From contig JBIKUX010000007.1 in NCBI GenBank assembly GCA_044347345.1, positions 32,001 to 96,000 of the forward strand: DNA of 64,000 nt, read 5' to 3'. Below are positions 23,916 through 48,153 of the stretch, one piece after another. The position numbers were made by a program, and so were the translations under genes. The stretch is from Bdellovibrionota bacterium. GTDB taxonomy: Bacteria > Bdellovibrionota_C > UBA2361 > JBIKUX01. A model generated the notes under the pieces. The model had not been told where the DNA came from and ran no database searches. It worked only from the letters and a program-made list of their open reading frames with translations. Each line of letters opens with the position of its first letter. Positions within the stretch are counted from its first letter, which is position 1.

Positions 23916-24587
23916 CTAATCCTCATCTCCCTTGTCAGGAGTCTTAAGCACGGAGAGCACAGGGATCTTGTCTAGTTCGGTATTATGCACCGCTTCGATA
24001 AGTCGAACTTTTAGCTCGTGCGGCAGCGACATTAGTGATTCTTCCTCGAAGTAGCAGAGGGCTTTAAGAGCACTTTGCGGAGCAAACGTATGCCCATACA
24101 GTGCTTGGCCTGCTGCAAGTATAGCAGGCAGTGCAATCCCGTGAGTAATCAGTGCGTCTATATCAATATAGTCTTTCGCCTCTGCCCGTTTCTGCACAAC
24201 TGCAGCCTTTGTTCCGGCAATATCAAGCAACGAAGCAACTCTCAATTGATTGTCTGGCGCAAACAAGGGGGGGCGCAGCAACGGCAGATGAGGCACGCCA
24301 AAGAAAGAGAGCTTTACCCACCCACCTCTTTCCACGCCGACGGTGAGAGTCTGCGGTGCCTTTTCCAAAATCGTCGCACCTTGCAGCAGCTCGAGAGCGA
24401 GCACTTCATCTGGATCAATTAATCTTGTGCCGAAAAAATTAAAATCAATAGACTCCCGATGCCCAAGATGAAGAGCAAGAGCGGTACCACCGTAAAGAGT
24501 GAACCATGGCGGAATCGCAACTAGCTCATGCCAAAGTTCTCTTTGGGGCGTAGGAAGTATCTGTAGCTGCGGAAGAAATGGTGCCAT
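23916..24587 (-). CDS. Nucleotidyltransferase AbiEii/AbiGii toxin-family protein
   Basis: LYGGTALALHLGHRESIDFNFF, KAAVVQKRAEAKDYID, ALCYF; ATG at 24587. Confidence 0.88.
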   Translation of the reverse strand: MAPFLPQLQILPTPQRELWHELVAIPPWFTLYGGTALALHLGHRESIDFNFFGTRLIDPDEVLALELLQGATILEKAPQTLTVGVERGGWVKLSFFGVPHLPLLRPPLFAPDNQLRVASLLDIAGTKAAVVQKRAEAKDYIDIDALITHGIALPAILAAGQALYGHTFAPQSALKALCYFEEESLMSLPHELKVRLIEAVHNTELDKIPVLSVLKTPDKGDED

Positions 24588-24655
24588 CGCCGCAAAGTAT
24601 ACTTCGTCTGTGGCCAGCGAGGCTAGATCGGAAGCCGCGCGTATTAAACCTTTGC

Positions 24656-24799
24656 GACTTTGAACCTCTAAGTCTCTGAGGGAAAGAGGTGGGGGGAAAG
24701 AGGTGGGGCTGAGGCGATACTCTTTATACCATCCGAAATGCCTTTCCGCCTGTAAGAACAACCTCGCGGGCCATACTAGTTCCGGAATTTTGCAAGAGC
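24656..24799. repeat. Composite repeat X+Y; X recurs at 30172-30253 and Y at 31272-31364
   Basis: Y is 93 bp with one mismatch at offset 6565. X is GACTTTGAACCTC…CTCTAAGTCTCTGAGGGAAAGAGGTGG. Y ends in TTTTGCAAGAGC, an IS-end-like motif. Confidence 0.9.
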
Positions 24800-24911
24800 C
24801 TTCCTAATTAAACAAGTTTTTCAGATTTTCGGCCTACTTACTAACAAGAAGGGGGATTTTAGGTAAATATTGCTATAAAAAGAAAGCCCTTCATCACTGT
24901 ATTCGCCTTTT

Positions 24912-25802
24912 CTATTTCGCCGTCCAACACGATCGTAACGTTGCAATGACTTCGCCGTGGACGTTACCGAGTAGATCGTTGTGTCCGACGGCATCTTTAC
25001 GGAGAAATGTGGTACGCACAGAAGAATGTGCGGAGCGTAGGATTGATTCGCTGTGATGCGCGCCGATTATTCTATCCGCTGTACCATGAGCAATAATGGC
25101 GCACGCATCACGGAGCTGCGCTACATACTGGGCAGTCGGAAATTCATACCAAAGGAACGGCGCAAGGTGACCAATAAGTGCTGTTTCCGCTACCAGTTCT
25201 CCCAGGTGAGCATACGGCGCAAGCAGGATGATCCCGCCTGCCTGGTATTTGCCAGCCACATACGCAGCTACCCCTGTGCCTATTGAGTTACCGACGACCA
25301 GGAGCTGCTTGGCTGATGAGAGAGGTTCACGCTTCGATACAAGCTCAAACGCCGCATCGGCATCAGCGTAGAAACCTTTCTCTGAAGGCCATCCAGAAAA
25401 CCGGCCATGGTACCCCCGATATTCAACCGAATAACTCGTCACTCCAGCAGCTGCGAGCCACCGCTGCAAAGCAACAAAACTGCCGAGTGATTCGGCATTA
25501 CCATGAAATAGGAGCGCAACCGTGGGAGGGGCCTCACCAATCCATGCCTCTTTTGCTGTATGACGCCACACATGAACCGTCGCACCGTCCAAGGCCGTAG
25601 TAGACAGCGCCTCAACATCGGCAGGGGGGACACTCATTTGGTTAATCACCGAGCCAGTATACAGCCCGGGGAACAGGTGAAAGTCCTGGGTAACGACAAA
25701 GAATATCGCCATGACCACCGTCGCGATGCTACCGCGAAGCAGCACGAGTGGTGCCTGACGAAGGGCCCGAGCAAAAAAGCGTGGAGGAAGAACGATAGAC
25801 AT
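24912..25802 (-). CDS. Alpha/beta hydrolase (BEM46/ABHD13-like)
   Basis: N-terminal TM, LFHGNAE, EYRGY, PSEKG, nucleophile GNSIG, HGTADRII, GHND. Confidence 0.88.
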   Translation of the reverse strand: MSIVLPPRFFARALRQAPLVLLRGSIATVVMAIFFVVTQDFHLFPGLYTGSVINQMSVPPADVEALSTTALDGATVHVWRHTAKEAWIGEAPPTVALLFHGNAESLGSFVALQRWLAAAGVTSYSVEYRGYHGRFSGWPSEKGFYADADAAFELVSKREPLSSAKQLLVVGNSIGTGVAAYVAGKYQAGGIILLAPYAHLGELVAETALIGHLAPFLWYEFPTAQYVAQLRDACAIIAHGTADRIIGAHHSESILRSAHSSVRTTFLRKDAVGHNDLLGNVHGEVIATLRSCWTAK

Positions 25803-26488
25803 TCGGCTCCGCCTTATAAGAAGAATAGCAGAGTCAGCCACGCTGTGGTGCGAATCATTCCGTTGCTGTTTTGATTTACTAACACGCCTGATTGATTCGA
25901 TTATTACTTAGCTGACCCCTTATTTAGACAGCAATCGATCCTTTCCTGTGTTCTGCCGATCGTGTGATCCTCCACTCATGATTGAAAAAGTGAGCTGCCT
26001 GCCGTGCGAGTAGGGCTTAGAAGAATTGGGGACACAGGCTAGTGTCTCTAATCTAAGATACTAATATGAGATACTAATATGAGACACCCAGATTAGCACT
26101 TAGAAAAAAATATAATCACAAATTTTTAGTGGGTTAGCCGAAAACGGGGCGTCGTTCTACAAAAACCGCCGAAGTCAGAAAAAAAACCAAGCGATCCGAC
26201 GACCAAGCAACCGATTGCTCCGAATTTGAAAATAGACTGCCACGCGTCGCCGCCGTACCTTTGTATTATCGCACTATTAAGTGAGCGTAGGTTCTCTTGC
26301 TCGACTAGCTATATTGACCCCATCCTGATGTTAGAAATTGCGGAAAATCCGAATAAAAAAAGTATGCAACTACTAAAGAAATTACAGCTATTTTTTTTTG
26401 AGTTCTCGCGCCTCTTTCTCTCAAAGGCGCCGTCTAAAAAAAAGCGATCAGCCAGAGTAACCGGTGTGGCCCAGAGGCAGCAACGGTT

Positions 26489-27679
26489 TTAGCCAATCAA
26501 CCCTTCAAAAAGCTCTTTGGGAGATTCAGCAGAGAGTAATCTATCTCCAATCTCTCGGGTGATGAGCAGCGTCTTCGACTCTGGATATTCCTGCTTAAAG
26601 GCATTGAGCCCTTTGTAACCCGCATCTTTTCCCGACTTGATCTCAACCGCACAGGTAAATTTCGGACTCTCGACAACAACATCAACATCCTGTCGGGAGT
26701 TAGACCAATAGTGAAGTTGATACTCCATGGTGTTAAATAGCGAGATCATCGCCGCCTCGTACACGTGACCGAACCATGCGCTGTCATGGCGTATTTTGGT
26801 GGGGTCATTTAGCCCATGAATCAGAGCACTCGCAAGAGGAATAATTTTTGGGCTTGATGTTCGTTGTCGTATTTTACCACCGGAGTATCGATAAAGAAGC
26901 TTGAGTAGAAAGCCTTTCTCCATGAGCTCGAGGTAGTTCTTGATGGTAGATGAAGCGGACTTTTCATTCAGTTGCCCTACCAATTTCGAGAAGGAGATCT
27001 CCTGACAGGGGAGAGAAAGGACAATGTGCAGCAACTGCCTAAAGACAGCCGTATTGATAACTGGCCGGAGAGAAAAAATATCTTTGGTGATAATCGGCTC
27101 TATGATGGCGTCTCTAATGAAATTTGAGCACCGCTCAAACTCCTGACTGGATCTCTTCTTCAGCAACTCACCTAGTATCGGATAGCCACCAAAGGTTAGG
27201 TAATCATACAGGTTCCATTGGTAGAGCGAACTCATTTCATAATGACTCCAGTGTGGAGCCTTTATGAGTTCAAAACGACCAAGCAGGCTCTCTTCGCCTT
27301 GCAGCAAAAGATCGAGGTTGGAAGAACCCAAGATAACGACGCTTAACTCTCTTCTGCTTCTCTCTTCGTCATACAGCTCTTTGATCAGCGGTGCCCACCC
27401 AGAAACGTTCTGTATTTCATCGAATGCGATTATTTTATGTCCAGGAATCCTTTTAATCTGTTCCCATTCAAACCGTATAGTTTGATGAGGATCAGAACCA
27501 GGGTTATCAAACTGCACATACCTTGCACGATCAGGAAAGGTCTGTAGAAGCGTCTTAATGGCTGTGGTCTTTCCCACCTGTCTTGGGCCACACAAAACCT
27601 GAATCAGTGGCGTGAAAGACGTCAGACGCTCTTCCAATATCCCGTAGAATTGTCTAGTAAAAACAGCTTGTTTTGCCAT
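26489..27679 (-). CDS. AAA_14/DUF4143 ATP-binding protein (intact)
   Basis: GPRQVGKT, FDEIQ, LGSS, ESLLGR, FGGYP, YWSN…DVDVV…AVEIKSG. Confidence 0.92.
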   Translation of the reverse strand: MAKQAVFTRQFYGILEERLTSFTPLIQVLCGPRQVGKTTAIKTLLQTFPDRARYVQFDNPGSDPHQTIRFEWEQIKRIPGHKIIAFDEIQNVSGWAPLIKELYDEERSRRELSVVILGSSNLDLLLQGEESLLGRFELIKAPHWSHYEMSSLYQWNLYDYLTFGGYPILGELLKKRSSQEFERCSNFIRDAIIEPIITKDIFSLRPVINTAVFRQLLHIVLSLPCQEISFSKLVGQLNEKSASSTIKNYLELMEKGFLLKLLYRYSGGKIRQRTSSPKIIPLASALIHGLNDPTKIRHDSAWFGHVYEAAMISLFNTMEYQLHYWSNSRQDVDVVVESPKFTCAVEIKSGKDAGYKGLNAFKQEYPESKTLLITREIGDRLLSAESPKELFEGLIG

Positions 27680-27682
27680 AAC

Positions 27683-27734
27683 TGCAAAATAGTAAAATAC
27701 ATCTCACTATTTTGCAAGATATATCTTACTATTT
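27683..27734. promoter_or_regulatory. Operator-like palindrome directly upstream of the AAA/DUF4143 start
   Basis: TGCAAAATAGT-N12-ACTATTTTGCA (perfect 11-bp arms) plus a third half-site ATCTTACTATTT. Confidence 0.6.
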
Positions 27735-27812
27735 AGGGAGCCAAAGGCTTTAGCGCCAGTAAAGCCTTCTTGTCTCCCCTCCCCCTCCCCTCTCTCGCCT
27801 CTTACTCCCTCG

Positions 27813-28195
27813 CCTCTTACTCTCAGGGATGTAGAGAAACCGAAGCGTACAGCTGTATGGCACACACAACTTCAATAATTATGACCTAAACACCTCTAGG
27901 TCTCTGAGAAAAAGAGACAAAAGAGAGCTTGCAGCTCCTGGCCTACTCTATGTTTTTGGTGTCCCGCCAGTTCGCGTCGACATACTCAACAATCTAACTG
28001 GTGCCCGCTTTGCAACAGCTTGGAAGAAGCGAGTAACTAAGAACATAGAAGGTGTGAAGGCAAAGATAGTCGGTAAAGGCTCGCTTATTAAGTTAAGCGG
28101 AATCACTTAGTAGACACGTTTGATGAGCCTAGCCCACGAACTGGTGGCTCGCTCGTACTAGGCTCATCGGTAGTAGTACTAGCTACCACCACCGC
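27813..28195. repeat. 383-bp direct repeat, copy 2
   Basis: Matches 12109-12491. Confidence 0.95.
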
Positions 28196-28350
28196 GGGGC
28201 TGACTAGAGATGCGAGCCTAGCTTGGCTTGGGCTTTCCTCGCCCCCCGCGCGTGCGAGCTGCGTCGTAGCCAAAGTATCGGGTAGTTGCCTCCCATCGGT
28301 CGGGGGGGAGATGTAAACCGAGAGCCTGGCAAGAAAGGTAAGCGGCTTAC
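28100..28350 (-). mobile_element. IS91-family transposase C-terminal remnant
   Basis: PLTFLARLSVYISPP, then a frameshift to RWEATTRYFGYDAARTRG, then the SWARLIKRVY tail. Confidence 0.75.
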
Positions 28351-28439
28351 CCTGCCATAACACGACGCCTGCGGCGCTGCGCTAGGTAACGACTGCTACG
28401 CCGTCAGTCGAAAGCTTTGTGAGGGCAAGTGGCGCGGGT

Positions 28440-28667
28440 TCAAGGTAACGAGCCAAGAACTGGAGCTGCTAACTGCGAGCCGATAAACGTGCCGAGTAAT
28501 GCCCCGCCAATACCTAAAAAACTGGTGCCAACCAGTCCCATAGGGTCACGGCCTGGCATTAGAATTCGTGCGGCCAAGCCCACACCAAACCCCACCAAGG
28601 TAATAAAGAGGAGGCTTAAAGAAACTTGCTCCTGTAAAGATTCAATCAGTGCACGAATTTCTTCCAT
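28440..28667 (-). CDS. GlsB/YeaQ/YmgE (transglycosylase-associated) membrane protein, possibly truncated
   Basis: GFGVGLAARILMPGRDPMGLVGTSFLGIGGALLG. Confidence 0.7.
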   Translation of the reverse strand: MEEIRALIESLQEQVSLSLLFITLVGFGVGLAARILMPGRDPMGLVGTSFLGIGGALLGTFIGSQLAAPVLGSLP

Positions 28668-28955
28668 CGGTGGTTATCCAACTAGCAAGAATAACTAATA
28701 TTTAAACCGTTAGCACCGGACTATTTTTAGTGAGGCTGCTACCCAGAGCGACCAGGCTGTACAAAAAGATGTACCAGTTCGTAAGCAAACGCTGATTAGA
28801 GCAACAAAAATAGTGTAAGCGAGATAACGTATGCTGCCTACCATCCCACCACCCCGATAATATCCTCCCAAACCGGTCCATCTCAACATTCCCTAACTGG
28901 CACTAATACCAGGAGGAACCCCGTCTTCAACGTTACCGATATCCCCCGTAGTCCT

Positions 28956-29981
28956 TTGTTGCCAGCCGGTAGCGCCGCCCCAGATAACTTTTCACAAAAC
29001 AGTGAAATCTCGGGTATGACTCAAGTTAAAACCCCACAGGATCCGGAGTACTGGTGCGTTTCTGATGACAAGACCGAAATTCAAGTATTCTCAATCACAG
29101 CAGATGGTAAGCTTACCCTGCTGCGAGAAATTGACCCCTTTAGTGGTGACGAGGCGAAACGCCCTAAGTTCCCAGATTTCGAGGCATTAGCGGTCGTAGA
29201 CAACGCTTACGGCAATCCGCAAACAGTTATCATCTCAAGCGAGCCTAAATATGATAAGGAAACGAAAGCGCTGCTGGCACCGCAAACTTTCTACTCGTTA
29301 GATCTCTCTGATGGGTCGGTAACCACATACAGCCTGCCACTGGAATTAGAAGGCAAAAATGGCATAGAAGCAATCACGGTAATCGACTTGCCCGATGGCG
29401 AAAAGGCGATCGTCGCGATAACGGAAGATCCGCAAGGCCTCACGCACCAAGTGCTAACCTTACGCCTACCATCAATTACTAACCCAAACACTAAACTAAC
29501 TTTGCTAAACCAAGCAGAAATTGACCTTTCGGAGGTTCCCGCCGCTTTCGGGATAGACAACCCGGAGGAGAAGGTTATCCCGCAGATAAAAGAAGTATTT
29601 GCCGGCCCAGATGGCGACTTGAAATTTCTAGTTGGTTTATTCAACAAAGATTCAGACAACCCTAAGAATGCAAGTATTGTTTACTCGCTTAGCTTAGAGG
29701 GTGAGGCAAACAATGGGAAAACCGCCGAGACCGCTCCAAAGCTTGTGATTCACGACGAAGGGTTTGCTCCAAAAGAAGGTTTTTTTCCTGGGGTGCCGAC
29801 TATCGTGAATCCATGGTCAGACAATTACGAAGCTGCTGTTTATGGTCCGGATTGGGTTTTAAATCTGATTTCGGACAATAATTCTGACCCTAAGCAGGAC
29901 CAGAACCACCTTTGGGTTAATGATGCCCCTCAAGCCCCCAGAGCCCCCAGCGAGGCCTTAGTGAGTGCCTATGTATTATAA
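28956..29981 (+). CDS. Phytase-like (esterase-like activity of phytase) beta-propeller protein; true start probably further upstream
   Basis: SEISGM, CVSDD, DFEALA, GIEAIT, DNYEA, LISDNN motifs; frame stays open upstream of 28956. Confidence 0.65.
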   Translation: MLPAGSAAPDNFSQNSEISGMTQVKTPQDPEYWCVSDDKTEIQVFSITADGKLTLLREIDPFSGDEAKRPKFPDFEALAVVDNAYGNPQTVIISSEPKYDKETKALLAPQTFYSLDLSDGSVTTYSLPLELEGKNGIEAITVIDLPDGEKAIVAITEDPQGLTHQVLTLRLPSITNPNTKLTLLNQAEIDLSEVPAAFGIDNPEEKVIPQIKEVFAGPDGDLKFLVGLFNKDSDNPKNASIVYSLSLEGEANNGKTAETAPKLVIHDEGFAPKEGFFPGVPTIVNPWSDNYEAAVYGPDWVLNLISDNNSDPKQDQNHLWVNDAPQAPRAPSEALVSAYVL

Positions 29982-30413
29982 GTGTCCCCGCCCCCCCGGA
30001 TGGATGGTCAAACGCCCAGCCCGGCACAATTCTGCGTTAGTAGCACCGACGGGTAGGAACAACTATAACCCCCATTGATTTTAGTAGCCTAGGTCTTAGG
30101 AATATTTAATATTGTGGTAATGCTGGGGAGTTTTTGTGTGCAATGTGGCCACGGAAGCACTAAAAACGGGTGACTTTGAACCTCCCTCTAAGTCTACCTC
30201 CCTCTAAGTCTCTGAGGGAAAGAGGTGGGGAAAGAGGTGGAGGAAAGAGGTGGAGATTGTCCCACACTAAATAAAGACTACTTTTCCATTTTATTGCAGT
30301 CCAAGGCTCAAGAAACCCTCTGATTAAAGCAGATGAGCTGATTCTGTGAACCAGTCATAATCCGCACGAGGATAGGGGAAGGAGCTTTCCTAGAATAACT
30401 GAGGAGAATAAAG

Positions 30414-31121
30414 ATGACTAACCCAGTTCACCAAAGTCAAACACTCGAAACGAGCACCACATCTGAGGTTTCAGCAGTCCATCACCCAGGTAGGAATTCA
30501 ACCTTACTTGCTCTTGTCACCGAAGCCCAACTCGATCTTGCGGCGAATCGATCGTTCATAGAAGAGCTCGTCAAACAATTTAATCAGCTAAACCCTATTC
30601 AGGTAGTCAGCGATCCAAGCACTGAGATAATCTCCATCCCGGAGGGTGCTATCCAGTTGGCTGAGGTAACCACCAATAGCTTATTCGATAACGGTCTCGG
30701 ACAAGCAATATTTGAATTGATGGCAACGGTCAAACCAGGTGACATAGTGGGAGTAGCCACTGAGACTCCTGATGTTTTTGGTGATGAAAAATTAGGAACT
30801 TTTGCGAGCTGGAATGTTGTGGGAAAGACTCCTGATGGCGACCTTGTCATAGAGGTGGCTACACAAACTGTTCACGCGAGTCACCAAAGACTCCTCGAGG
30901 AGGGTTATGACAAGATCAACCCACAATTTTTCGGTCCCGACATTATTCGTTTTGCTATAGACCCCCAGAATCCACGCTTTGATGGCACCGAGCTTATGTG
31001 GCCACGGCAGTATGATCGCTCTGGGAACAACATCGGGTGGAACCCGCAACTTTCTAGTGCCGTGTACGGAGAAGAGGTCAGAAGAGCCCTTCAACGAATT
31101 GGATATCCAAGCTCAGAGTAA
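30414..31121 (+). CDS. Hypothetical protein
   Basis: 235-aa ORF with a GAGGAG RBS; no family recognised. Confidence 0.7.
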   Translation: MTNPVHQSQTLETSTTSEVSAVHHPGRNSTLLALVTEAQLDLAANRSFIEELVKQFNQLNPIQVVSDPSTEIISIPEGAIQLAEVTTNSLFDNGLGQAIFELMATVKPGDIVGVATETPDVFGDEKLGTFASWNVVGKTPDGDLVIEVATQTVHASHQRLLEEGYDKINPQFFGPDIIRFAIDPQNPRFDGTELMWPRQYDRSGNNIGWNPQLSSAVYGEEVRRALQRIGYPSSE

Positions 31122-31560: not shown

Positions 31561-33057
31561 TTACAAACCAAACAACACGGTCTTTTGTCGCATATAACTT
31601 TCTGTAACTGTTTCTAAACAAGCCTCTCTACCAAAGCCTGAATTCTTAAAACCGCCGTAAGGTGTCCCCGGCCTAAAAACGATATTTTGATTGATCTGTA
31701 CGAAACCAGCTTCGGCCTCATTTGCAAATCGAAGCGCTTTACCAATATCGCGAGTCCAAAGGTATGCCGCCAACCCATAACTCGTATCATTGGCCGCGGC
31801 AAGCGCAGCATCAAAATCAGTAAAAGGAATAACAAGGCATACAGGTCCAAATATCTCTTCTTTAGCTAAACGAGAATCATTGCTAGCACCGTACACAATG
31901 GTTGGTCGACAGAAAAAACCCTCGCTAAAAATCTTAGATTCAGGAAGCTCACCCACTTGAGCAAGCTCAATTTGAGGGTCAGATTTAACCTCATGAATGT
32001 AACTCATCACCTTCTCGTACTGCTGACGAGAAATAATACTCCCGATATCCGTTTGCTCTTGAAACGGATCACCTATTCGGAGTGCCTTAAGCTTGAGCTC
32101 TAAAAACTGTTTAACTTCAGCAAGAATACTATTATGCACAAATACCCGACTAGCAGCAGAACAACTTTGCCCTTGTCTAGTAAAACGCATACCACTTACG
32201 ATTCCATTAACCGCCTGCTCAACATCTGCATCTTCAGCGATAATCATCGGGCTCTTACCACCCAGCTCCATCGTCGTACTAATTAGCCTCTCTCCAGCTT
32301 TAGCGGCAATACTGCGGCCAGTCACTGTAGAACCGGTAAAACTAACCTTTCGCACATCTTCATGCGCTACAAGAGCAGCGCCAGCGGATACACCTGTACC
32401 GCAAACTACATTAAGTACGCCGGAAGGAAATAAATTACCAATCAGCTCAGTAGCTTTAAGTACCGCCAAAGATGCATTCTCCGAGGGTTTTACAACTACC
32501 GTATTTCCGGCAAGTAATGCAGGTGCAATTTTATGCACCATAAGCATCACCGGTACGTTCCACGGAATAATGGCACCAACCACCCCAACAGGCTCGTAAA
32601 CAGTAAGTGTCATCATCTCGCGAGCCACAGGTATTGTTTGACCCTTTATTTCACCCCCAAGACCCGCGTAAAATTCAAAAACGTCAGCTACACTTAACGC
32701 CTCTAAGCGACTCTCAGTGCGAAGTGCCTTGCCAGTTTCAAGTGTAATAATACCGGCTAGTAACTCTGAATGCTTGCGCAGCTCTTCCCCACAGGCTCGA
32801 AAAATTTGCCCGCGCTCTCGAGGCGTGCTTTGTCGCCAACTACTAAATGATTTGACGGCAGCACTAACAGCGCGGTCAATATCTTCTGCATTACTAGCTG
32901 GTATGCAGCCTACCTCTTCATTTCTTGCAGGATCAATAACCGGAATAGTCTGTCCAGTTACAGAAGGTATAAATCGACCATCAATAAACTGTTTATTCCA
33001 AAGAGATTTTGCTACATTCTTAGCATGCAAGCGCCGTTCATCTGCGAGGTCTGTCAT
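31561..33057 (-). CDS. NAD(P)-dependent aldehyde dehydrogenase
   Basis: IIPWNVP, KPSE, FTGST, MELGGKSP, catalytic QGQSCSA, EEIFGPV, PYGGFKNSGFGRE; GGAGG RBS before ATG 33057. Confidence 0.95.
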   Translation of the reverse strand: MTDLADERRLHAKNVAKSLWNKQFIDGRFIPSVTGQTIPVIDPARNEEVGCIPASNAEDIDRAVSAAVKSFSSWRQSTPRERGQIFRACGEELRKHSELLAGIITLETGKALRTESRLEALSVADVFEFYAGLGGEIKGQTIPVAREMMTLTVYEPVGVVGAIIPWNVPVMLMVHKIAPALLAGNTVVVKPSENASLAVLKATELIGNLFPSGVLNVVCGTGVSAGAALVAHEDVRKVSFTGSTVTGRSIAAKAGERLISTTMELGGKSPMIIAEDADVEQAVNGIVSGMRFTRQGQSCSAASRVFVHNSILAEVKQFLELKLKALRIGDPFQEQTDIGSIISRQQYEKVMSYIHEVKSDPQIELAQVGELPESKIFSEGFFCRPTIVYGASNDSRLAKEEIFGPVCLVIPFTDFDAALAAANDTSYGLAAYLWTRDIGKALRFANEAEAGFVQINQNIVFRPGTPYGGFKNSGFGREACLETVTESYMRQKTVLFGL

Positions 33058-33157: not shown

Positions 33158-34092
33158 TCAGGGCTGTCGGCAGATTGCCCTACTACACAACATTGAACCA
33201 AAAACAACAAGAATGGCTCCAAAAATTAGAGTAAAGGAGAGATTATGGTGCGAAAGGATGGCAGTAACTAAAGTGGAAAAAAGCGGGATAAACATCGAAA
33301 CAATCGATATGGTTACGATGTTCCCATACCTCATCCCCATATCCCAGAAAAGATATGCAGTCGCTGCTAGAATAGCCCACATTACTAAAAGAGCAATATC
33401 ATTGGGCACAAAGCTTGGTAAAGGTTCTAGGCCAATAGCAATAAATAACAGCGGGAGGGATGTTACCAACATATAAAGCGGTACCGGTGATATTCCCTCT
33501 GGGTTAAGTAACTTTCGCGAAAGGTTACTATAAAGAGCCCAAGCCACTGCATCTATCACAGCTAAGGTGTAGGCAAACATGTTTACCTGAATAAAAGATC
33601 CTGAGGTAATACCGGCGGAAGGATCACTCCATGAAGAAAATTTTACAGCTATTACACCGGCAATGACGCTGACTAAACCAAACGCAAGCCACCAAACATT
33701 TGCCTGAGCGTGGCGGAATAAAACTCCAAAAAGAAGTGTTAGTGACGGCCACAGATAGTTAAGAATTCCTACCACCAAAAGCTCTCCACTATTCTTAGCA
33801 AGCCCTACAGCGAGCCAGCACGCGGTGACATTTAAAAACCAGAAAGTTCCACAAATAAACAGAGCGCGAGTGTTATGTAGGCAGATTCCAAATAAAATCC
33901 CGCGTTTCCAAAAAAAAGTGTAAGGATGATACCAGAGATAGCAAGCTCAAACCCGGCACCATAAAAAACTCCAAATGCAACGGTAATTCGGTTCATTACC
34001 AGGATGGCTAAACTCCATATCAAACAAGCTAAAAACCCGCTTAATGTAGCCTTAATGGGAGTAAACTGAGAGAAGCACAGATTCCGTATCAT
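33158..34092 (-). pseudogene. yddG: YddG-like aromatic amino acid DMT exporter, frameshifted at a T8 tract
   Basis: KATLSGFLACLIWS and GILNYLWPSLT match YddG. One extra T at 33910-33917 would join the two ORFs. Confidence 0.75.
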
Positions 34093-34264
34093 AAACCGAA
34101 TTTTATGGATGGAATAAATCACATAATCAGTAGATGTAGCTAAATAAGTTCTATCTTTATTAGTGTTATCGATATAGGAACGGATTAAATATTTTTTGGT
34201 ACATTAACTTTTACAGTGTAAAATCTCACTGTATAAATTCTCACTGTATAAATTACTGCGCTAA

Positions 34265-35743
34265 TTAACGTGTTAAAGAGGGCAGCCTTAAAGTATCAAT
34301 TATGGCTCTAAGTAGCGCTATATTATCAGAGTGACCAGTCATACAAGCAGTGACCCTACCCCGTAAAGGACGGCCTAATAAGCTTAGATCACCTATAACA
34401 TCTAATATTTTGTGCCGAACAAATTCATCAGGGAATCGAAGCGCTACATTAATCGGGCCATCCTCGCCAACTAGAACAAAATTATCAAATCGACCACCTT
34501 GAGCGAGACCCTGCCTCTGTAACCCACCAATGTCACGTACCAAACCAAAAGTACGCGCAGGAGCGATGTCAGCTAAATACTGTTCTGGAGAAGAGAGCGT
34601 AAAAGAATATTCTTGAATTCCCAACGGTGGCGGATAGACTAATTTATATGTAACCGAAAAATCCTCCGCTGGCTCAATCTCAATAAATTCACCTCGCTCA
34701 CCAGATGTAGCAACACGAATTGTTTGTGGAATAGCTACTTCCCAAATATCACCATCTTGCTCTTCGACACCCGTCTCACTGATCAAAGAATAGAAATCAA
34801 GTGCTGACCCATCCATGGCCGGTACTTCATCGTTACACTTAATCAGCAGATTTGTTATTCCAAAAGCTCTAAGAGCAGAAAGTAAATGCTCAACAGTGCT
34901 CACATGTACGCCAGAACCCTTAAGAGTAGTGGCAAAGCCTGTAGATTCTACAAAAGAAACTAGTGCTGGTACGGCAGATCCCCCAGCCACTCCAGCAAAA
35001 TGAATACCTGACCCTGAAGGAAGAGGCTCCAAGCTAAGTCCCGTCTTGCGGCCAGTATGTAGCCCTTGCCCGTAAACTAATGCATTTCCAGCCAAAGTGC
35101 GTTGCGATATTTTTCTTCCGGCTGCCACCTTATCCGAAAAAATGAACGATAAAGGATTTATCTTTACAGCTTGACGAAGTATGACCTTTGAGTCTTGTAA
35201 TCTTCTGTTCCCATGCAAGGGCTCTCCTTGCAAGATTGCACTGTTATCATCGACTTCATTTACAGATGCACTTTTATCGTAATCACTTTTATCGTAATCA
35301 TTGCCCGTCCCAGAGACACTAGGCGATGATGTTACTGACTCAGGTTGCTTAGATATAAGCCGCCTAACTGTTTCCACTGTGACTGTCAGATCCAGAGGTT
35401 TCTCCAAAAAGTGAGAGGCTCCCTGCTTTGTAGCCTCTACAGCAGTGGCTATTGTTGCATGACCGCTAATCATAACCACTGGCACTTTAGGGGCAGCAGC
35501 AATTATTTGCCCCAATGCCTCTAATCCATCAATACCCGGAAGCCAGATATCAAGAAATATCAGAGCAGGTCGCTCGTTCTCTAAAAACTTAAACGCTAAT
35601 TCAGCATCATTCACTACTACGGTTTCCAGCCCTTCATCAGCAAGTATTTGCTGTAAAGCCCGACCAATGCTCGGCTCATCGTCAATCACTAATACTCGCC
35701 CTGAGGTCATGAAACTGGATTCCGATTTAATAAGTGGCCTCAT
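34265..35743 (-). CDS. lpxC: Response-regulator receiver domain fused to UDP-3-O-acyl-GlcNAc deacetylase LpxC
   Basis: REC: VIDDE, FLDIWLPGIDG, ISGH, EKP. LpxC: QRTL, GLHTG, TVEHLLSAL, EVPAMDGSA, APARTFG, EFVRHKILDVIGDL, GH. Confidence 0.92.
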   Translation of the reverse strand: MRPLIKSESSFMTSGRVLVIDDEPSIGRALQQILADEGLETVVVNDAELAFKFLENERPALIFLDIWLPGIDGLEALGQIIAAAPKVPVVMISGHATIATAVEATKQGASHFLEKPLDLTVTVETVRRLISKQPESVTSSPSVSGTGNDYDKSDYDKSASVNEVDDNSAILQGEPLHGNRRLQDSKVILRQAVKINPLSFIFSDKVAAGRKISQRTLAGNALVYGQGLHTGRKTGLSLEPLPSGSGIHFAGVAGGSAVPALVSFVESTGFATTLKGSGVHVSTVEHLLSALRAFGITNLLIKCNDEVPAMDGSALDFYSLISETGVEEQDGDIWEVAIPQTIRVATSGERGEFIEIEPAEDFSVTYKLVYPPPLGIQEYSFTLSSPEQYLADIAPARTFGLVRDIGGLQRQGLAQGGRFDNFVLVGEDGPINVALRFPDEFVRHKILDVIGDLSLLGRPLRGRVTACMTGHSDNIALLRAIIDTLRLPSLTR

Positions 35744-35788
35744 ATTTTTTTACAACCATATTCTGTAACTATACTAGCCAATAAAAAA

Positions 35789-37102
35789 TTAACACATGAT
35801 CGTCTGATCTCTATCTGGCCCCACGCTGACTATACTAACAGGAACCCCTGCAAGATCGGCAATCAAAGATAAATATCGCCGCGCTGCATCAGGAAGATCA
35901 CTTAACCTTCTGGCTCCTGAGATATCCTCATTCCAACCTTCAGTTTGAATGTACTCCACTCCTACCCTACTGAGCTCATCTGCAAGCATGGGGATATTAT
36001 CTGTAAACTTTTGTTCACCCAAGGTATAAGAACACGCAATCTTCAGCTCAGATAATCCGGATAGCACATCAAGTTTAGTAATAATCAGTTGTGAAATACC
36101 ACTAATTTTAATCGCATACCTAAGAAGAACCATATCAAGCCATCCACATCGCCGAGCTCGACCGGTAGTGGTACCAAACTCACTACCTTGCTGTCTAAGA
36201 AACTCACCCGTCTCTTCTTGCAATTCAGTAGGAAATGGCCCCTCACCAACGCGAGTTGAATAAGCCTTGGTTACTCCAAAAATTGTTCCAATAAACTCAG
36301 GTGTTACTCCACAGCCTGAGGCGATTGACGCTGGTAGGGTAGAAGATGAAGTAACAAAGGGAACCGTGCCAAAAATTGGATCTAGCAATACTCCTTGAGC
36401 TCCTTCAAAAACCACTTTTTCTCCGCGACCTTTAGCCTCAAGCAATACCTCACTTCCGTCACCGCAAAAAGGTAAAACCTCTGCTACCGCTTGCTCTATT
36501 GATTCCCAAATAGTAGCAAATGATACACCATCTCTGTCTCCAAGAACTTTAGTCATATATAAATTTTTTTGCTCAACTACAGAGACGAGTCTACTGCGCA
36601 AAGTATCAAGCGCGCGGAGCTCAGCTACCCGCACCCCACATCTAGCGGCTCGATCCTCATAACATGGCCCTATACCTCGACCAGTAGTACCAATCTTTAC
36701 TCCACCAGAAGACCCACCACTACCGCTTTCGCGCAAGTTATCTATTCGACGATGATAAGGAAGCACAAGCTCTGTACGTCCATCAACAATAAGACGCTCT
36801 GGGCTAACATTTATTCCAGCTTGCCGCAATCTTGTTACTTCATCGGCAAAACCTTGTGGTTCTAAAACTACACCCGCGCCAATTAAGCACCTCGTGCTGC
36901 GGCGCAAAATACCAGACGGTATAAGATGTAATTTAGTGGTAATACCGCCTACCACTAAAGTATGACCAGCATTATTACCCCCATGAAAGCGCACCACCAA
37001 ATGAGAATCTTCAGTCAAAAGGTCGACTATTTTGCCCTTACCCTCATCTCCCCATTGCGCTCCAACAATTGTGAGTGCCTTATCGTCTCTGATTACAGTC
37101 AT
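35789..37102 (-). CDS. purA: Adenylosuccinate synthetase
   Basis: GAQWGDEGKGK, GGNNAGHT, GTTGRGIGP, FEGAQG, TKLDVL; ATGA overlap with truB. Confidence 0.97.
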   Translation of the reverse strand: MTVIRDDKALTIVGAQWGDEGKGKIVDLLTEDSHLVVRFHGGNNAGHTLVVGGITTKLHLIPSGILRRSTRCLIGAGVVLEPQGFADEVTRLRQAGINVSPERLIVDGRTELVLPYHRRIDNLRESGSGGSSGGVKIGTTGRGIGPCYEDRAARCGVRVAELRALDTLRSRLVSVVEQKNLYMTKVLGDRDGVSFATIWESIEQAVAEVLPFCGDGSEVLLEAKGRGEKVVFEGAQGVLLDPIFGTVPFVTSSSTLPASIASGCGVTPEFIGTIFGVTKAYSTRVGEGPFPTELQEETGEFLRQQGSEFGTTTGRARRCGWLDMVLLRYAIKISGISQLIITKLDVLSGLSELKIACSYTLGEQKFTDNIPMLADELSRVGVEYIQTEGWNEDISGARRLSDLPDAARRYLSLIADLAGVPVSIVSVGPDRDQTIMC

Positions 37103-38124
37103 AAAAAGTTGTCTTCTTCTCGTTGATAAAATAACCTGCTCCACTCTGGGTCTCCTTGAAAATTTACCGAACAACCAAGAAGTCCAATCGGAGCCTGCTG
37201 AGGATTAGAGTATATAACAATTTGCTGATATTTGTCGTCGTTGGTTAGATTTTTTCTACTACAAGCAGAAAAATCATGAAGTAACTTGGAAACTCTCTCT
37301 GGGAAAATGCCAGTTTGCAGCATTTTGCACTCAGTTTCATTGCAAGTAAGAGGAATAAAACTAGATGGCTCAAAAATTCGCCACCAAGGTAGGATAGTTA
37401 AACCACTTTCTGCGTCGACAGTTACATCAGGTTTAGTAGTAAAAGATACATTAATTTTATTTGAATTTTTTACATTGAATGGGAAAATTGATTCCCGCCG
37501 TAAACTTAGTAAACAACCCTCTGTTCCTAGTATCTTGGCAATATCTCTAGCTAAGGATCTAATATAGGTACCCTTACTACACCTGATCGAAAAAGATACA
37601 GATTGAACTCGGTCTCCATCAAGTGTAGCTACTCCTAGTGAAAAAGAAAAAACTGTGACCTCTCGAGCCTTAAGTACCGGCTCATTACGACAATTCTCGG
37701 CCTGATCCATATTGGTAGCCCTTAAATGTCGAGAAATAACGTAAGCTCTTACTCCAGAAACTTTAACAGCACTTACATTTGGGGGAACTTGAGAAATTTT
37801 ACCTGTAAAAGAAGGGATTATATCCAGCAGGTCTTTTAATTTAGGCAGTACATGCGAACGCTTAATAATTCTACCTGTAACGTCATCAGTATCGGTGGCT
37901 AGTCCAAATAAAAACTCACCAGAATACTCCTTAACACCAGATTGCACAAAGGAAACCAGTCTAGTTGCCCGACCAGTTAATAGAACTAAAAGGCCTGTAG
38001 CTGCAGGATCAAGAGTACCTGCATGCCCAATTTTATCAAACTTATGAGTTCTCTTTACAAGCCCTACGACTCGTGCTGACGAATATCCATAAGGTTTGTC
38101 GACAAGAATTACTCCGCTTTGCAT
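37099..38124 (-). CDS. truB: tRNA pseudouridine(55) synthase
   Basis: GHAGTLDPAATG, QVPP, SAVKV, CSKGTYIRSLA. Confidence 0.95.
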   Translation of the reverse strand: MQSGVILVDKPYGYSSARVVGLVKRTHKFDKIGHAGTLDPAATGLLVLLTGRATRLVSFVQSGVKEYSGEFLFGLATDTDDVTGRIIKRSHVLPKLKDLLDIIPSFTGKISQVPPNVSAVKVSGVRAYVISRHLRATNMDQAENCRNEPVLKAREVTVFSFSLGVATLDGDRVQSVSFSIRCSKGTYIRSLARDIAKILGTEGCLLSLRRESIFPFNVKNSNKINVSFTTKPDVTVDAESGLTILPWWRIFEPSSFIPLTCNETECKMLQTGIFPERVSKLLHDFSACSRKNLTNDDKYQQIVIYSNPQQAPIGLLGCSVNFQGDPEWSRLFYQREEDNFL

Positions 38125-47208: not shown

Positions 47209-48099
47209 TTAAGCTTCAGAGAGTTCACGCTCCAATAACCTAAAATACTGATCGGCACGACCATAAGCAGATGCATATCCTGTATGTGAAGCAAATCGCA
47301 ATAATCGAATTTCACTTCTTGCAGGAAGACTCCGATCAGGATGATATCTCTCCCAGTCACCTCTTTCATAAGCCACAACCAGCTCTCTCGCACTGGCTAT
47401 AATTCTTCTTGCTTCCGAACGTAATTTTTCTTCGGGAGTAAGCTCTCGACCCTCAACAAATACATTAATAATTGGCAAAATACCCCGTTGAGCTAGATAA
47501 CGATTCACTACAATTTGCGGCGAAAAACCAAAATCATTGTGTAACCTGTAATCAATTTTACTTTGGATAAATTTTACCTCGTTAGCCATGGAGATAAACT
47601 GATACCCTAAATGAACCAAGGCAAGTAAATCGCCGACTGAAGCCAATATTGCTGCAGTATGAACCAATGTCACCGACTCAACCGTCATAGCCTCAGCTAT
47701 AAACCGAGCAACCTTGCCAATCATAGTGCCTCTTAAAAGAAGAGCATCGTACCACCACCGCTCTTCACCCTTGAGAGGAAAACCAGTTAACTGGCGATCC
47801 ATGACAGACAAAAATGACTGAAGTCCATTCTCTCCTAGACGGATTACTGATTGCTCAAGCGACGATAACGGTGCTAATCCAGACCCAGAAAGACGATTAG
47901 CCGCACAAAGAAGCTCTAAAGTAAGTACAGGATCATCCAATAAGACTTCGCGTAACTGATTCGGACGTAAATTCTTATTAGACGCTAGAAGGTGCACTCG
48001 TCCTAAAGAATTGGCCGAAGGAGCAAGTGCCCTCTGATAAATCTTAGATAGTGGCTCTTGCTTTTTATTAGGAGAATTAACAGTTAACCGACGCCTCAT
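47209..48099 (-). CDS. HDOD-domain protein
   Basis: DPVLTLELLCAAN, SLEQSVIRLG, AAILASVG. Confidence 0.8.
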   Translation of the reverse strand: MRRRLTVNSPNKKQEPLSKIYQRALAPSANSLGRVHLLASNKNLRPNQLREVLLDDPVLTLELLCAANRLSGSGLAPLSSLEQSVIRLGENGLQSFLSVMDRQLTGFPLKGEERWWYDALLLRGTMIGKVARFIAEAMTVESVTLVHTAAILASVGDLLALVHLGYQFISMANEVKFIQSKIDYRLHNDFGFSPQIVVNRYLAQRGILPIINVFVEGRELTPEEKLRSEARRIIASARELVVAYERGDWERYHPDRSLPARSEIRLLRFASHTGYASAYGRADQYFRLLERELSEA

Positions 48100-48153
48100 T
48101 TTAATAGAGCATCTCAATAAAAAAAAATAAAATCAGCCCTTAGTCACTTACCA

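Follow-up and report, generated by a model that had tools for sequence, protein, structure and literature searches.

In a lake bacterium of the Bdellovibrionota, one gene encodes a response regulator receiver domain (REC) followed by a polar linker and a complete LpxC, which catalyzes the committed step in the synthesis of outer-membrane lipid A. The gene lies on the reverse strand of a 64,000-nucleotide stretch of DNA (positions 32,001 to 96,000 of contig JBIKUX010000007.1, GenBank assembly GCA_044347345.1), referred to here as the window; the coordinates of its parts are collected in Table 1. Judging from sequence comparison, the fusion is ancient and widespread. The reading that we favor, and to which we give an even chance as a whole, is that the protein is a true response regulator with LpxC as its output, that a kinase of the NtrY type drives it, and that the receiver acts on catalysis.

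The regulation of LpxC to match growth is understood mainly in Escherichia coli, where it operates through proteolysis, and is largely open outside the enterobacteria. If our reading is correct, outer-membrane synthesis would be under a switch that is built into LpxC and works directly and reversibly by phosphorylation. New in this work are the recognition of an unlinked orphan kinase by reciprocal best matches, the near-universality of both genes in the phylum, the REC-HTH_8-LpxC intermediates, and the read-level confirmation of the junction.

Architecture of the REC-LpxC protein

Two candidate start codons are present in the DNA, the first ATG and Met12, giving a product of 492 or 481 amino acids. 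The shorter form is the one in the protein database (P0001, 100% identity), where it occurs on five contigs. In the 492-residue numbering used throughout, the Pfam Response_reg model (PF00072) matched residues 17-125 with an E-value of 4.5e-26 and 91.6 bits (cut-off 30.2), and the LpxC model (PF03331) matched residues 214-482 with an E-value of 4.6e-78 and 262.9 bits (cut-off 27), from position 1 to 267 of its 268 positions. The NCBIfam lpxC equivalog TIGR00325 scored 223.4 bits, above its cut-off of 187.25, and residues 208-482 matched solved LpxC chains at about E 1e-46. Response_reg and LpxC were the only Pfam domains found; the protein has no match to AAA+ (Sigma54_activat), HTH_8, or a FabA-like domain, and with 185.1 bits it falls short of the 465-bit cut-off of the bifunctional LpxC-FabZ model NF009667. 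From its domain content the protein is not an NtrX, despite its NtrX-like receiver.

The residues expected of both activities are in place. In the receiver these are Asp 21, Asp 22, Asp 65 (within FLDIW), Ser 93, Phe 112, and Lys 115; in LpxC they are Glu 285-His 286, His 444-Lys 445-x-x-Asp 448, Asp 452, and Gly 470-His 471. His 286, His 444, Asp 448, Glu 285, and His 471 align with the corresponding residues of the solved LpxC chains, and from the LpxC literature we take the two histidines and the aspartate of this set to be the zinc ligands (His, His, Asp) and the remaining Glu and His to be catalytic.

The Pfam envelopes of the two domains are separated by 88 residues (126-213). An AlphaFold2 (AF2) model of the 492-residue protein, built from a 120-row alignment, had a mean predicted local distance difference test score (pLDDT) of 83.9 and a predicted template modeling score of 0.72. 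The receiver showed the alternating strands and helices of its family (pLDDT 80-96). Between the domains only residues 136-189 were predicted to be disordered, and residues 190-213 were modeled confidently, with a short helix at 199-203. The disordered part contains a direct peptide repeat, DYDKS-DYDKS, at residues 149-158 (35270-35299, reverse strand). The linker seems to have been expanded recently, because only one of the 120 nearest homologues (434-506 amino acids) exceeds the protein in length. The earlier note on this DNA had described, from the nucleotide sequence, an uninterrupted frame, an intact NtrX/NtrC-like receiver, a linker of about 90 residues, and a complete LpxC with EH, HKxxD, and GH motifs, and each part of that description was borne out.

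The junction and traces of expression

A fusion seen in a draft genome could be an artefact of assembly or gene calling that joined two genes. We found nothing in favor of this explanation. The frame is open without a stop codon, the identical protein recurs on the five contigs mentioned above, and the architecture is shared throughout the phylum (below). In addition, a 788-nt contig from a metagenome run that is not flagged as a source (run X10) covers positions 35076-35863 with no differences. It runs from the end of purA through the start codon, receiver, and linker into the beginning of LpxC. The fusion is not an assembly chimera, because this independent contig bridges the junction without differences, and with the artefact explanation already refuted we assign it next to no probability. 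Numerous metagenome runs from lake water contained the stretch.

Three short contigs (151-206 nt) from two metatranscriptome runs lie over parts of the receiver and the linker. DNA carry-over into these libraries is possible, so that the contigs are a weak hint that the fusion gene is expressed and do not prove its co-transcription with purA. A promoter and terminator scan of positions 33700-37400 returned fewer sites than shuffled sequence did.

Distribution and conservation

Both Pfam domains were present in all 120 of the best database matches, which carry plain LpxC names where the source gives one. Every genome of the same order (41 of 41) has a match, and in these the receiver and LpxC parts usually share one open frame of 430-490 amino acids. 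At E<=1e-25 the fusion was matched in 120 of the 124 phylum genomes, including 72 of the 73 of high quality. Among the genomes of other species, a scan of one genome per species gave at least 525 loci, labeled Bdellovibrionota/Oligoflexia, "Deltaproteobacteria", Deferrimicrobium, Syntrophorhabdaceae, and Binatia. The earlier note had named absence of the fusion from reads and relatives as a result that would refute it; the X10 contig and these counts show the fusion in both.

The four phylum genomes with no LpxC match are G033 (90% complete), G040 (82%, one contig), G043 (66%), and G066 (77%). Their lpxC was probably left unassembled, because all four have an lpxB match, although in G040 and G043 only does it exceed the cut-off. 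G040 also has no NtrY-type kinase (see below), which at 82% completeness is uninformative.

We aligned the 120 fusion homologues, for which the mean column identity was 55%. Among the receiver residues, Asp 21, Asp 22, Asp 65, Ser 93, Phe 112, Lys 115, and Pro 116 were invariant, as were Glu 285, His 286, Thr 398, Phe 399, His 444, Lys 445, Asp 448, Asp 452, and His 471 of LpxC. The segment preceding the LpxC domain, NPxVF...G(R/K), is semi-conserved, with Phe 202 at 90% or more and Gly 209 invariant. The invariance of phospho-acceptor and catalytic residues on either side of a variable linker argues that both halves are functional and that the receiver is phosphorylated.

The most divergent forms come from family f22, whose genomes measure 1.2-1.8 Mb. 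Its compact fusions have a short linker and a length of 412 amino acids (G041, L125:1605-2843) or 378 amino acids (G042, L126:1-1137), and are 31-36% identical to the window's protein; Asp 65, Ser 93, and Lys 115 are retained. In place of the SGH motif that follows strand 4, these proteins have SAQ or SSQ. Family f22, with its weak LpxC match and no kinase match, was considered as a holder of an unfused LpxC and a case of joint absence with the kinase, and was rejected because both genomes carry these short receiver-LpxC fusions.

Conservation also bears on the idea that the receiver is an evolutionary leftover, a constitutive structural or dimerization module with no part in signaling. Such a leftover would fit the decay of the AAA and HTH domains of the presumed ancestor (below) and the lack of a kinase adjoining the gene in this genome. 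The purifying selection on the residues of phospho-chemistry, six of which (Asp 21, Asp 22, Asp 65, Ser 93, Phe 112, and Lys 115) are the same in 120 of 120 proteins and three of which persist even in family f22, would nevertheless be unexpected of a relic, and we consider this explanation very improbable.

Origin of the fusion

The LpxC domain alone (288 amino acids) was searched against 1.84 billion cluster representatives and gave 8526 matches, of which the best-scoring were almost all N-terminally extended. We scanned 15 of the best 150 representatives with Pfam. Five proteins of 650-736 amino acids (P0125, P0129, P0131, P0140, and P0151) have the order REC, Sigma54_activat, AAA_lid, LpxC, and two of 491-505 amino acids (P0146 and P0152) have the order REC, HTH_8, LpxC. 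The 15 also included N-terminally cut AAA-lid-LpxC pieces, plain LpxC, and one LpxC-FabZ (P0179, LpxC with a FabA-like domain).

A tree of the LpxC domain was built from the best 150 matches and the window's protein (151 rows, reduced to 140 by dropping 11 fragments with fewer than 235 aligned residues). This was a quick, unconstrained IQ-TREE run under LG+G4 with Shimodaira-Hasegawa-like approximate likelihood ratio (SH-aLRT) support and midpoint rooting, in which each row was labeled according to how long its extension is. One group of 47 rows, with an SH-aLRT value of 99, took in every one of the 43 extended rows (23 short, 18 long, and 2 intermediate). The four unextended rows in this group may be cut gene calls. 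Across the midpoint root were 82 of the 89 unextended rows and all eight LpxC-FabZ rows, and three further unextended rows branched beside the fused group. Given a root outside the group, the tree supports the view that the N-terminal fusion arose once.

The long forms were confined to one subclade (27 rows, SH-aLRT 95) with short forms nested among them; the support for P0146 with P0142 was 100. This grouping of the extended forms, which include REC-AAA-LpxC and REC-HTH-LpxC proteins, suggests that LpxC became joined to a regulator of the NtrX type, which was reduced afterwards. A complete REC-AAA-HTH regulator as ancestor is the more economical reading, unsettled for the subclade of the window's protein. 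We found nothing in its linker that could be aligned with the REC-HTH_8-LpxC forms as a relic of an HTH or AAA domain. By crude patterns, 11 of the 18 long forms had a Walker A motif and none had Walker B or GAFTGA; to our knowledge NtrX lacks GAFTGA.

The lipid A pathway in this genome

Exactly one LpxC match, the fusion itself, was found in the genome (2.53 Mb in 68 contigs, with 95.8% completeness), in answer to a check that the earlier note had proposed. Matches to lpxA (304.7 bits) and lpxB (199.6 bits) were both above their curated cut-offs. With the sole LpxC fused and lpxA and lpxB present, the organism very probably makes its lipid A with the fused enzyme.

The lpxB gene, too, is part of a fusion: outside the window (contig C7 of this genome, G000:C7, locus L130:1-2742, reverse strand), a 1091-amino-acid open frame joins it in frame with an ABC transporter. 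LpxB occupies residues 52-410, ABC_membrane residues 477-745, and ABC_tran begins at residue 811. This looks like an LpxB-MsbA-type fusion, which would be a second fusion in the lipid A pathway of this genome. Among the relatives, lpxB lies in a 915-amino-acid open frame in G033, and in frames of 414-419 amino acids in G040 and G043.

A candidate kinase partner

The best NCBIfam receiver model for the REC domain was NtrX (NF051870, 97.2 bits), and its best solved relatives, 4d6x and 5m7n (82-86 bits), came ahead of NtrC (68 bits). No kinase gene adjoins the fusion in this genome, as the earlier note had observed: at the locus the neighbors are purA, an EamA transporter in pieces, and an aldehyde dehydrogenase. 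Of the 24 HATPase_c matches in the genome, we scanned 21 with Pfam. Among them is a 753-amino-acid kinase of the NtrY type on contig C33, outside the window (G000:C33:9712-11973), which consists of NtrY_N (37.7 bits, cut-off 23.2), HAMP, PAS, HisKA, and HATPase_c. Its H-box reads HEIKNPL, with the histidine at position 530, its G1 and G2 boxes are intact, and it has several N-terminal hydrophobic segments. This C33 kinase is an orphan, with ruvA, ruvB, and a 197-amino-acid open reading frame (ORF) upstream, leuC and leuD downstream, and no regulator alongside.

The operon adjacency of the NtrY/NtrX type, missing in this genome, is found elsewhere. In a survey of 80 related loci, eight (L108-L112, L114, L117, and L118, here called the Binatia type) had a kinase gene immediately ahead of the fusion and in the same orientation. 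The full kinase ORF, of 740-766 amino acids, could be read in seven of the eight; that of L109 is cut by the end of the locus. The gap between kinase and fusion was 12-184 bp in six of these loci, and in L112 the two ORFs overlap. In comparison with the C33 kinase the adjacent kinases scored 205-329 bits, whereas the nine remaining kinase matches in the set reached 61-94 bits. In the reverse search the C33 kinase was the best match in the genome for all eight (204-315 bits), with runners-up at 66-82 bits. The kinases of L108 and L111, the two tested, have the domain layout of the C33 kinase. We found one C33 kinase orthologue per genome in 116 of the 124 phylum genomes, including all 73 of high quality. 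On the strength of the Binatia-type synteny and the reciprocal best matches, the C33 kinase is the probable partner of the REC-LpxC protein.

Proposed mechanism and alternatives

In the mechanism that we propose, an NtrX/NtrC-type regulator of REC-AAA-HTH organization became fused to LpxC, and its AAA and HTH domains later decayed to the present linker. The C33 kinase, a membrane sensor of the NtrY type, would phosphorylate Asp 65, and the phosphorylated receiver would change LpxC activity through receiver dimerization, or because a contact between receiver and catalytic domain is formed or lost. A docking prediction of the receiver (residues 12-135) on LpxC (190-492) scored 0.00 against a mark of 0.32, which is no verdict on contact either way, and the AF2 output consists of the fold and per-residue confidence, without inter-domain contacts or an error map. 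The earlier note had proposed direct two-component control of lipopolysaccharide (LPS) flux. The sequence evidence is supportive of this proposal and a kinase counterpart has now been found; the part of it that concerns a change in LpxC activity or stability with the state of the receiver is something that we, too, only infer.

Besides the purely inferential character of that last step, several points weigh against our reading. The linker is variable and, as modeled, disordered, so that a route for the signal from the receiver to LpxC is hard to see. The pairing with the C33 kinase is drawn from synteny in other organisms and from reciprocal best matches; the Binatia-type fusions are 69-92% identical to one another, so that this synteny comes from a single clade, and with both genes near-universal in the phylum their co-occurrence says little. 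In the two f22 genomes (80 and 85% complete) we detected no NtrY-type kinase at E<=1e-40, the best match being 95.9 bits. Kinases of other kinds stand beside the fusion in other clades: one arrangement is a divergent pair of an HDOD gene and a PAS_3 kinase, and another is found in L095 (9349-13156) and L100 (9314-13118), where genes for a PBP_like_2 periplasmic binding protein, a 515-amino-acid PAS kinase, and a REC-Sigma54_activat-HTH_8 regulator come after the fusion in the same direction. In the LpxC tree, the subclade of the window's protein (seven rows, six short and one unextended) joins the others in a polytomy, leaving the direction from long to short forms unsettled there. Finally, the LapB zinc ribbon model, whose lack of matches here is considered below, matched 10 of 14 control genomes, Gram-positives among them.

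The gap between the fusion and the binding-protein cluster of L095 is 29 bp, and one kinase in the L095/L100 arrangement could serve both the transcriptional regulator and the LpxC fusion. The divergent HDOD and PAS_3 kinase pair was checked with Pfam in L051 and L084, where the kinase is PAS_3-HisKA-HATPase_c with the HDOD gene before it, and was deduced for another five loci from where a weak kinase match lies. In these 7 of 80 loci the kinase lies about 250-400 bp upstream of the fusion. This raises the question of whether the receiver is phosphorylated by another donor, such as the PAS_3 kinase or acetyl phosphate, the latter tying LpxC to carbon and energy status. The genome analysed here has a counterpart of the PAS_3 kinase (G000:C10:15429-16604, 253 bits) in an operon of HDOD, PAS_3 kinase, and a 129-amino-acid receiver (G000:C10:14458-17005), which shares its contig with the fusion at a distance of about 50 kb, and the retention of the fusion by family f22 with no detectable NtrY-type kinase would also fit a different donor. 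The PAS_3 kinase is nevertheless a weaker candidate than the C33 kinase, because its own receiver follows it in the operon and it is thus no orphan. Furthermore, the seven loci represent one clade (fusions 69-88% identical), the receiver of the fusion is of the NtrX type, and the co-directional layout with short gaps goes with the NtrY-type kinase. We therefore think another donor unlikely. The window also holds a weakly matching HDOD-domain ORF at 47209-48117 on the reverse strand.

A second alternative is that the receiver sets the lifetime of LpxC and not its rate, with phosphorylation exposing or hiding a degradation signal or recruiting FtsH, Lon, or ClpXP. Proteolysis is the best-documented form of LpxC control in the available parts of a 2025 review of lipid A (PMC12444477) and of a paper that cites the FtsH work (PMC3333781). 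FtsH is encoded in this genome, a long disordered linker of the kind predicted here is by general knowledge a typical protease entry site, and the conservation data fit this explanation as well as they fit allostery. On the other hand, we identified no degron or adaptor, and the unconserved sequence of the linker would be odd for a specific degron. The DUF3413 domain of YejM (PF11893) had no match in the 95.8%-complete genome, and neither had the LapB zinc ribbon (PF18073), a model of 28 positions that is unspecific, so that the absence of LapB is unproven. An effect on lifetime alone seems to us to have only a small chance of being the right explanation.

Returning to control of catalysis by the NtrY-type kinase, a broader proposal is that REC-LpxC replaces the FtsH/LapB/YejM circuit in several uncultured phyla, and that it goes back to an NtrX/NtrC-type transcriptional activator of lpxC that captured its own target gene, so that regulation shifted off the promoter and onto the enzyme. 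We put this forward tentatively, at somewhat less than an even chance. The graded series REC-AAA-HTH-LpxC, REC-HTH-LpxC, and REC-linker-LpxC would then exemplify a transcription factor absorbed by an enzyme that it perhaps once regulated. The orphan NtrY-type kinase would make a concrete pair with the fusion and give a handle on the signal that sets lipid A flux in lake bacteria.

Genomic surroundings

The fusion gene ends a co-directional run of rimP, nusA, ylxR, infB, rbfA, a DHH/DHHA1 protein, truB, purA, and REC-LpxC. Of the 80 related loci, 23 likewise have purA immediately before the fusion. Downstream of the fusion are the pieces of the EamA-family transporter and then the aldehyde dehydrogenase. 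The transporter (33158-34122, reverse strand) is in two pieces, a 206-amino-acid ORF with one EamA domain and a 96-amino-acid ORF with no Pfam match; a frameshift or a split may have affected the gene. The first of these two ORFs overlaps with the beginning of the aldehyde dehydrogenase ORF.

A patch at 23916-31121 is unlike its housekeeping surroundings. It contains an ORF with an AbiEii toxin domain (23916-24761), an alpha/beta hydrolase, an AAA_14/DUF4143 ATPase (26489-27679), and two ORFs with no Pfam match (28956-29981 and 30414-31121), and may be a small mobile or defense island.

Table 1. Features of the REC-LpxC gene and its upstream neighbor, in window coordinates
Feature	Position	Strand	Remarks
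REC-linker-LpxC ORF	34265..35743	-	492 amino acids from the first ATG, stop codon included; uninterrupted frame
Alternative start codon, Met12	35708..35710	-	Choice of the gene callers in the protein database; gives 481 amino acids
REC domain, NtrX-like, residues 17-125	35369..35695	-	Pfam PF00072, NCBIfam NtrX model, AF2
Codon of Asp 65, predicted phospho-acceptor	35549..35551	-	In FLDIW; invariant in 120 of 120 fusion proteins
Polar linker, predicted disordered, residues 136-189	35177..35338	-	AF2 pLDDT <50; variable in length and unalignable among homologues
N-terminal extension of the LpxC domain, residues 190-213, NPxxF...G(R/K)	35105..35176	-	Semi-conserved; AF2 pLDDT 79-86
LpxC deacetylase domain, residues 214-482	34298..35104	-	E285/H286, T398, H444/K445/D448, D452, H471; PF03331, TIGR00325
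purA (adenylosuccinate synthetase)	35789..37174	-	PF00709, 531 bits; co-directional, upstream, 45 bp from the first ATG

Comparison with known systems

Neither a receiver-LpxC fusion nor LpxC as the output of a response regulator was described in the literature that we searched, which lay mostly outside the subscription journals. In the 2025 lipid A review (PMC12444477) the words receiver, fusion, fused, and response regulator do not occur. The review covers control of the FtsH/LapB type, upholding the background on E. coli that the earlier note had given, and transcriptional control of lpxC by NtrYX and ChvGI in two alphaproteobacteria.

The known fusion of the enzyme, LpxC-FabZ, which the earlier note had named and which P0179 exemplifies, resembles the present protein in that LpxC is joined to another domain. 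It differs in that its partner is C-terminal and metabolic, and all eight of its rows lie opposite the receiver fusions on the LpxC tree. The E. coli system of FtsH, LapB (YciM), and YejM (PbgA/LapC) acts on the same enzyme and likewise sets flux at the committed step. There, control is by regulated proteolysis through separate proteins, and of these proteins only FtsH was found here.

Two-component systems acting on lpxC have been reported. In the parts of PMC3333781 available, lpxC is the one target mapped for the sigma54 regulator DVU2934 of Desulfovibrio vulgaris, whose operon also encodes the kinase DVU2931, and in Syntrophobacter fumaroxidans lpxC adjoins an operon orthologous to DVU2931/DVU2934. 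As far as these parts go, DVU2931/DVU2934 is like the system proposed here in being dedicated to lpxC and is a precedent for such a regulator acting on it, and the L095/L100 layout resembles that of S. fumaroxidans, with lpxC beside a regulator operon. DVU2934 is however a separate protein acting on the lpxC promoter, whereas here the receiver is part of LpxC itself.

Loss of NtrYX in Rhodobacter sphaeroides raised the lpxC transcript 8.8-fold and increased LPS, with no NtrX site found at lpxC, according to the available part of PMC7240162. Control by NtrYX in the alphaproteobacteria is transcriptional, extends to dozens of genes, and is reported there to be indirect for lpxC in R. sphaeroides. 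The NtrY/NtrX systems of the alphaproteobacteria (for example R. sphaeroides, Caulobacter crescentus, and Brucella) are nonetheless the nearest to the present one in their parts: the receiver of the fusion is closest to NtrX, and the candidate kinase has the NtrY layout. The fusion differs in having neither AAA+ nor HTH, in having an enzyme and not DNA binding as its output, and in that kinase and regulator are unlinked in this genome.

Response regulators with a receiver and an enzyme include CheB (REC-methylesterase), PleD and WspR (REC-GGDEF), and RpfG (REC-HD-GYP). In CheB the receiver blocks the active site, and in PleD it acts by dimerization. These proteins share with REC-LpxC an N-terminal receiver with the canonical phospho-residues, a flexible linker, and a catalytic domain.

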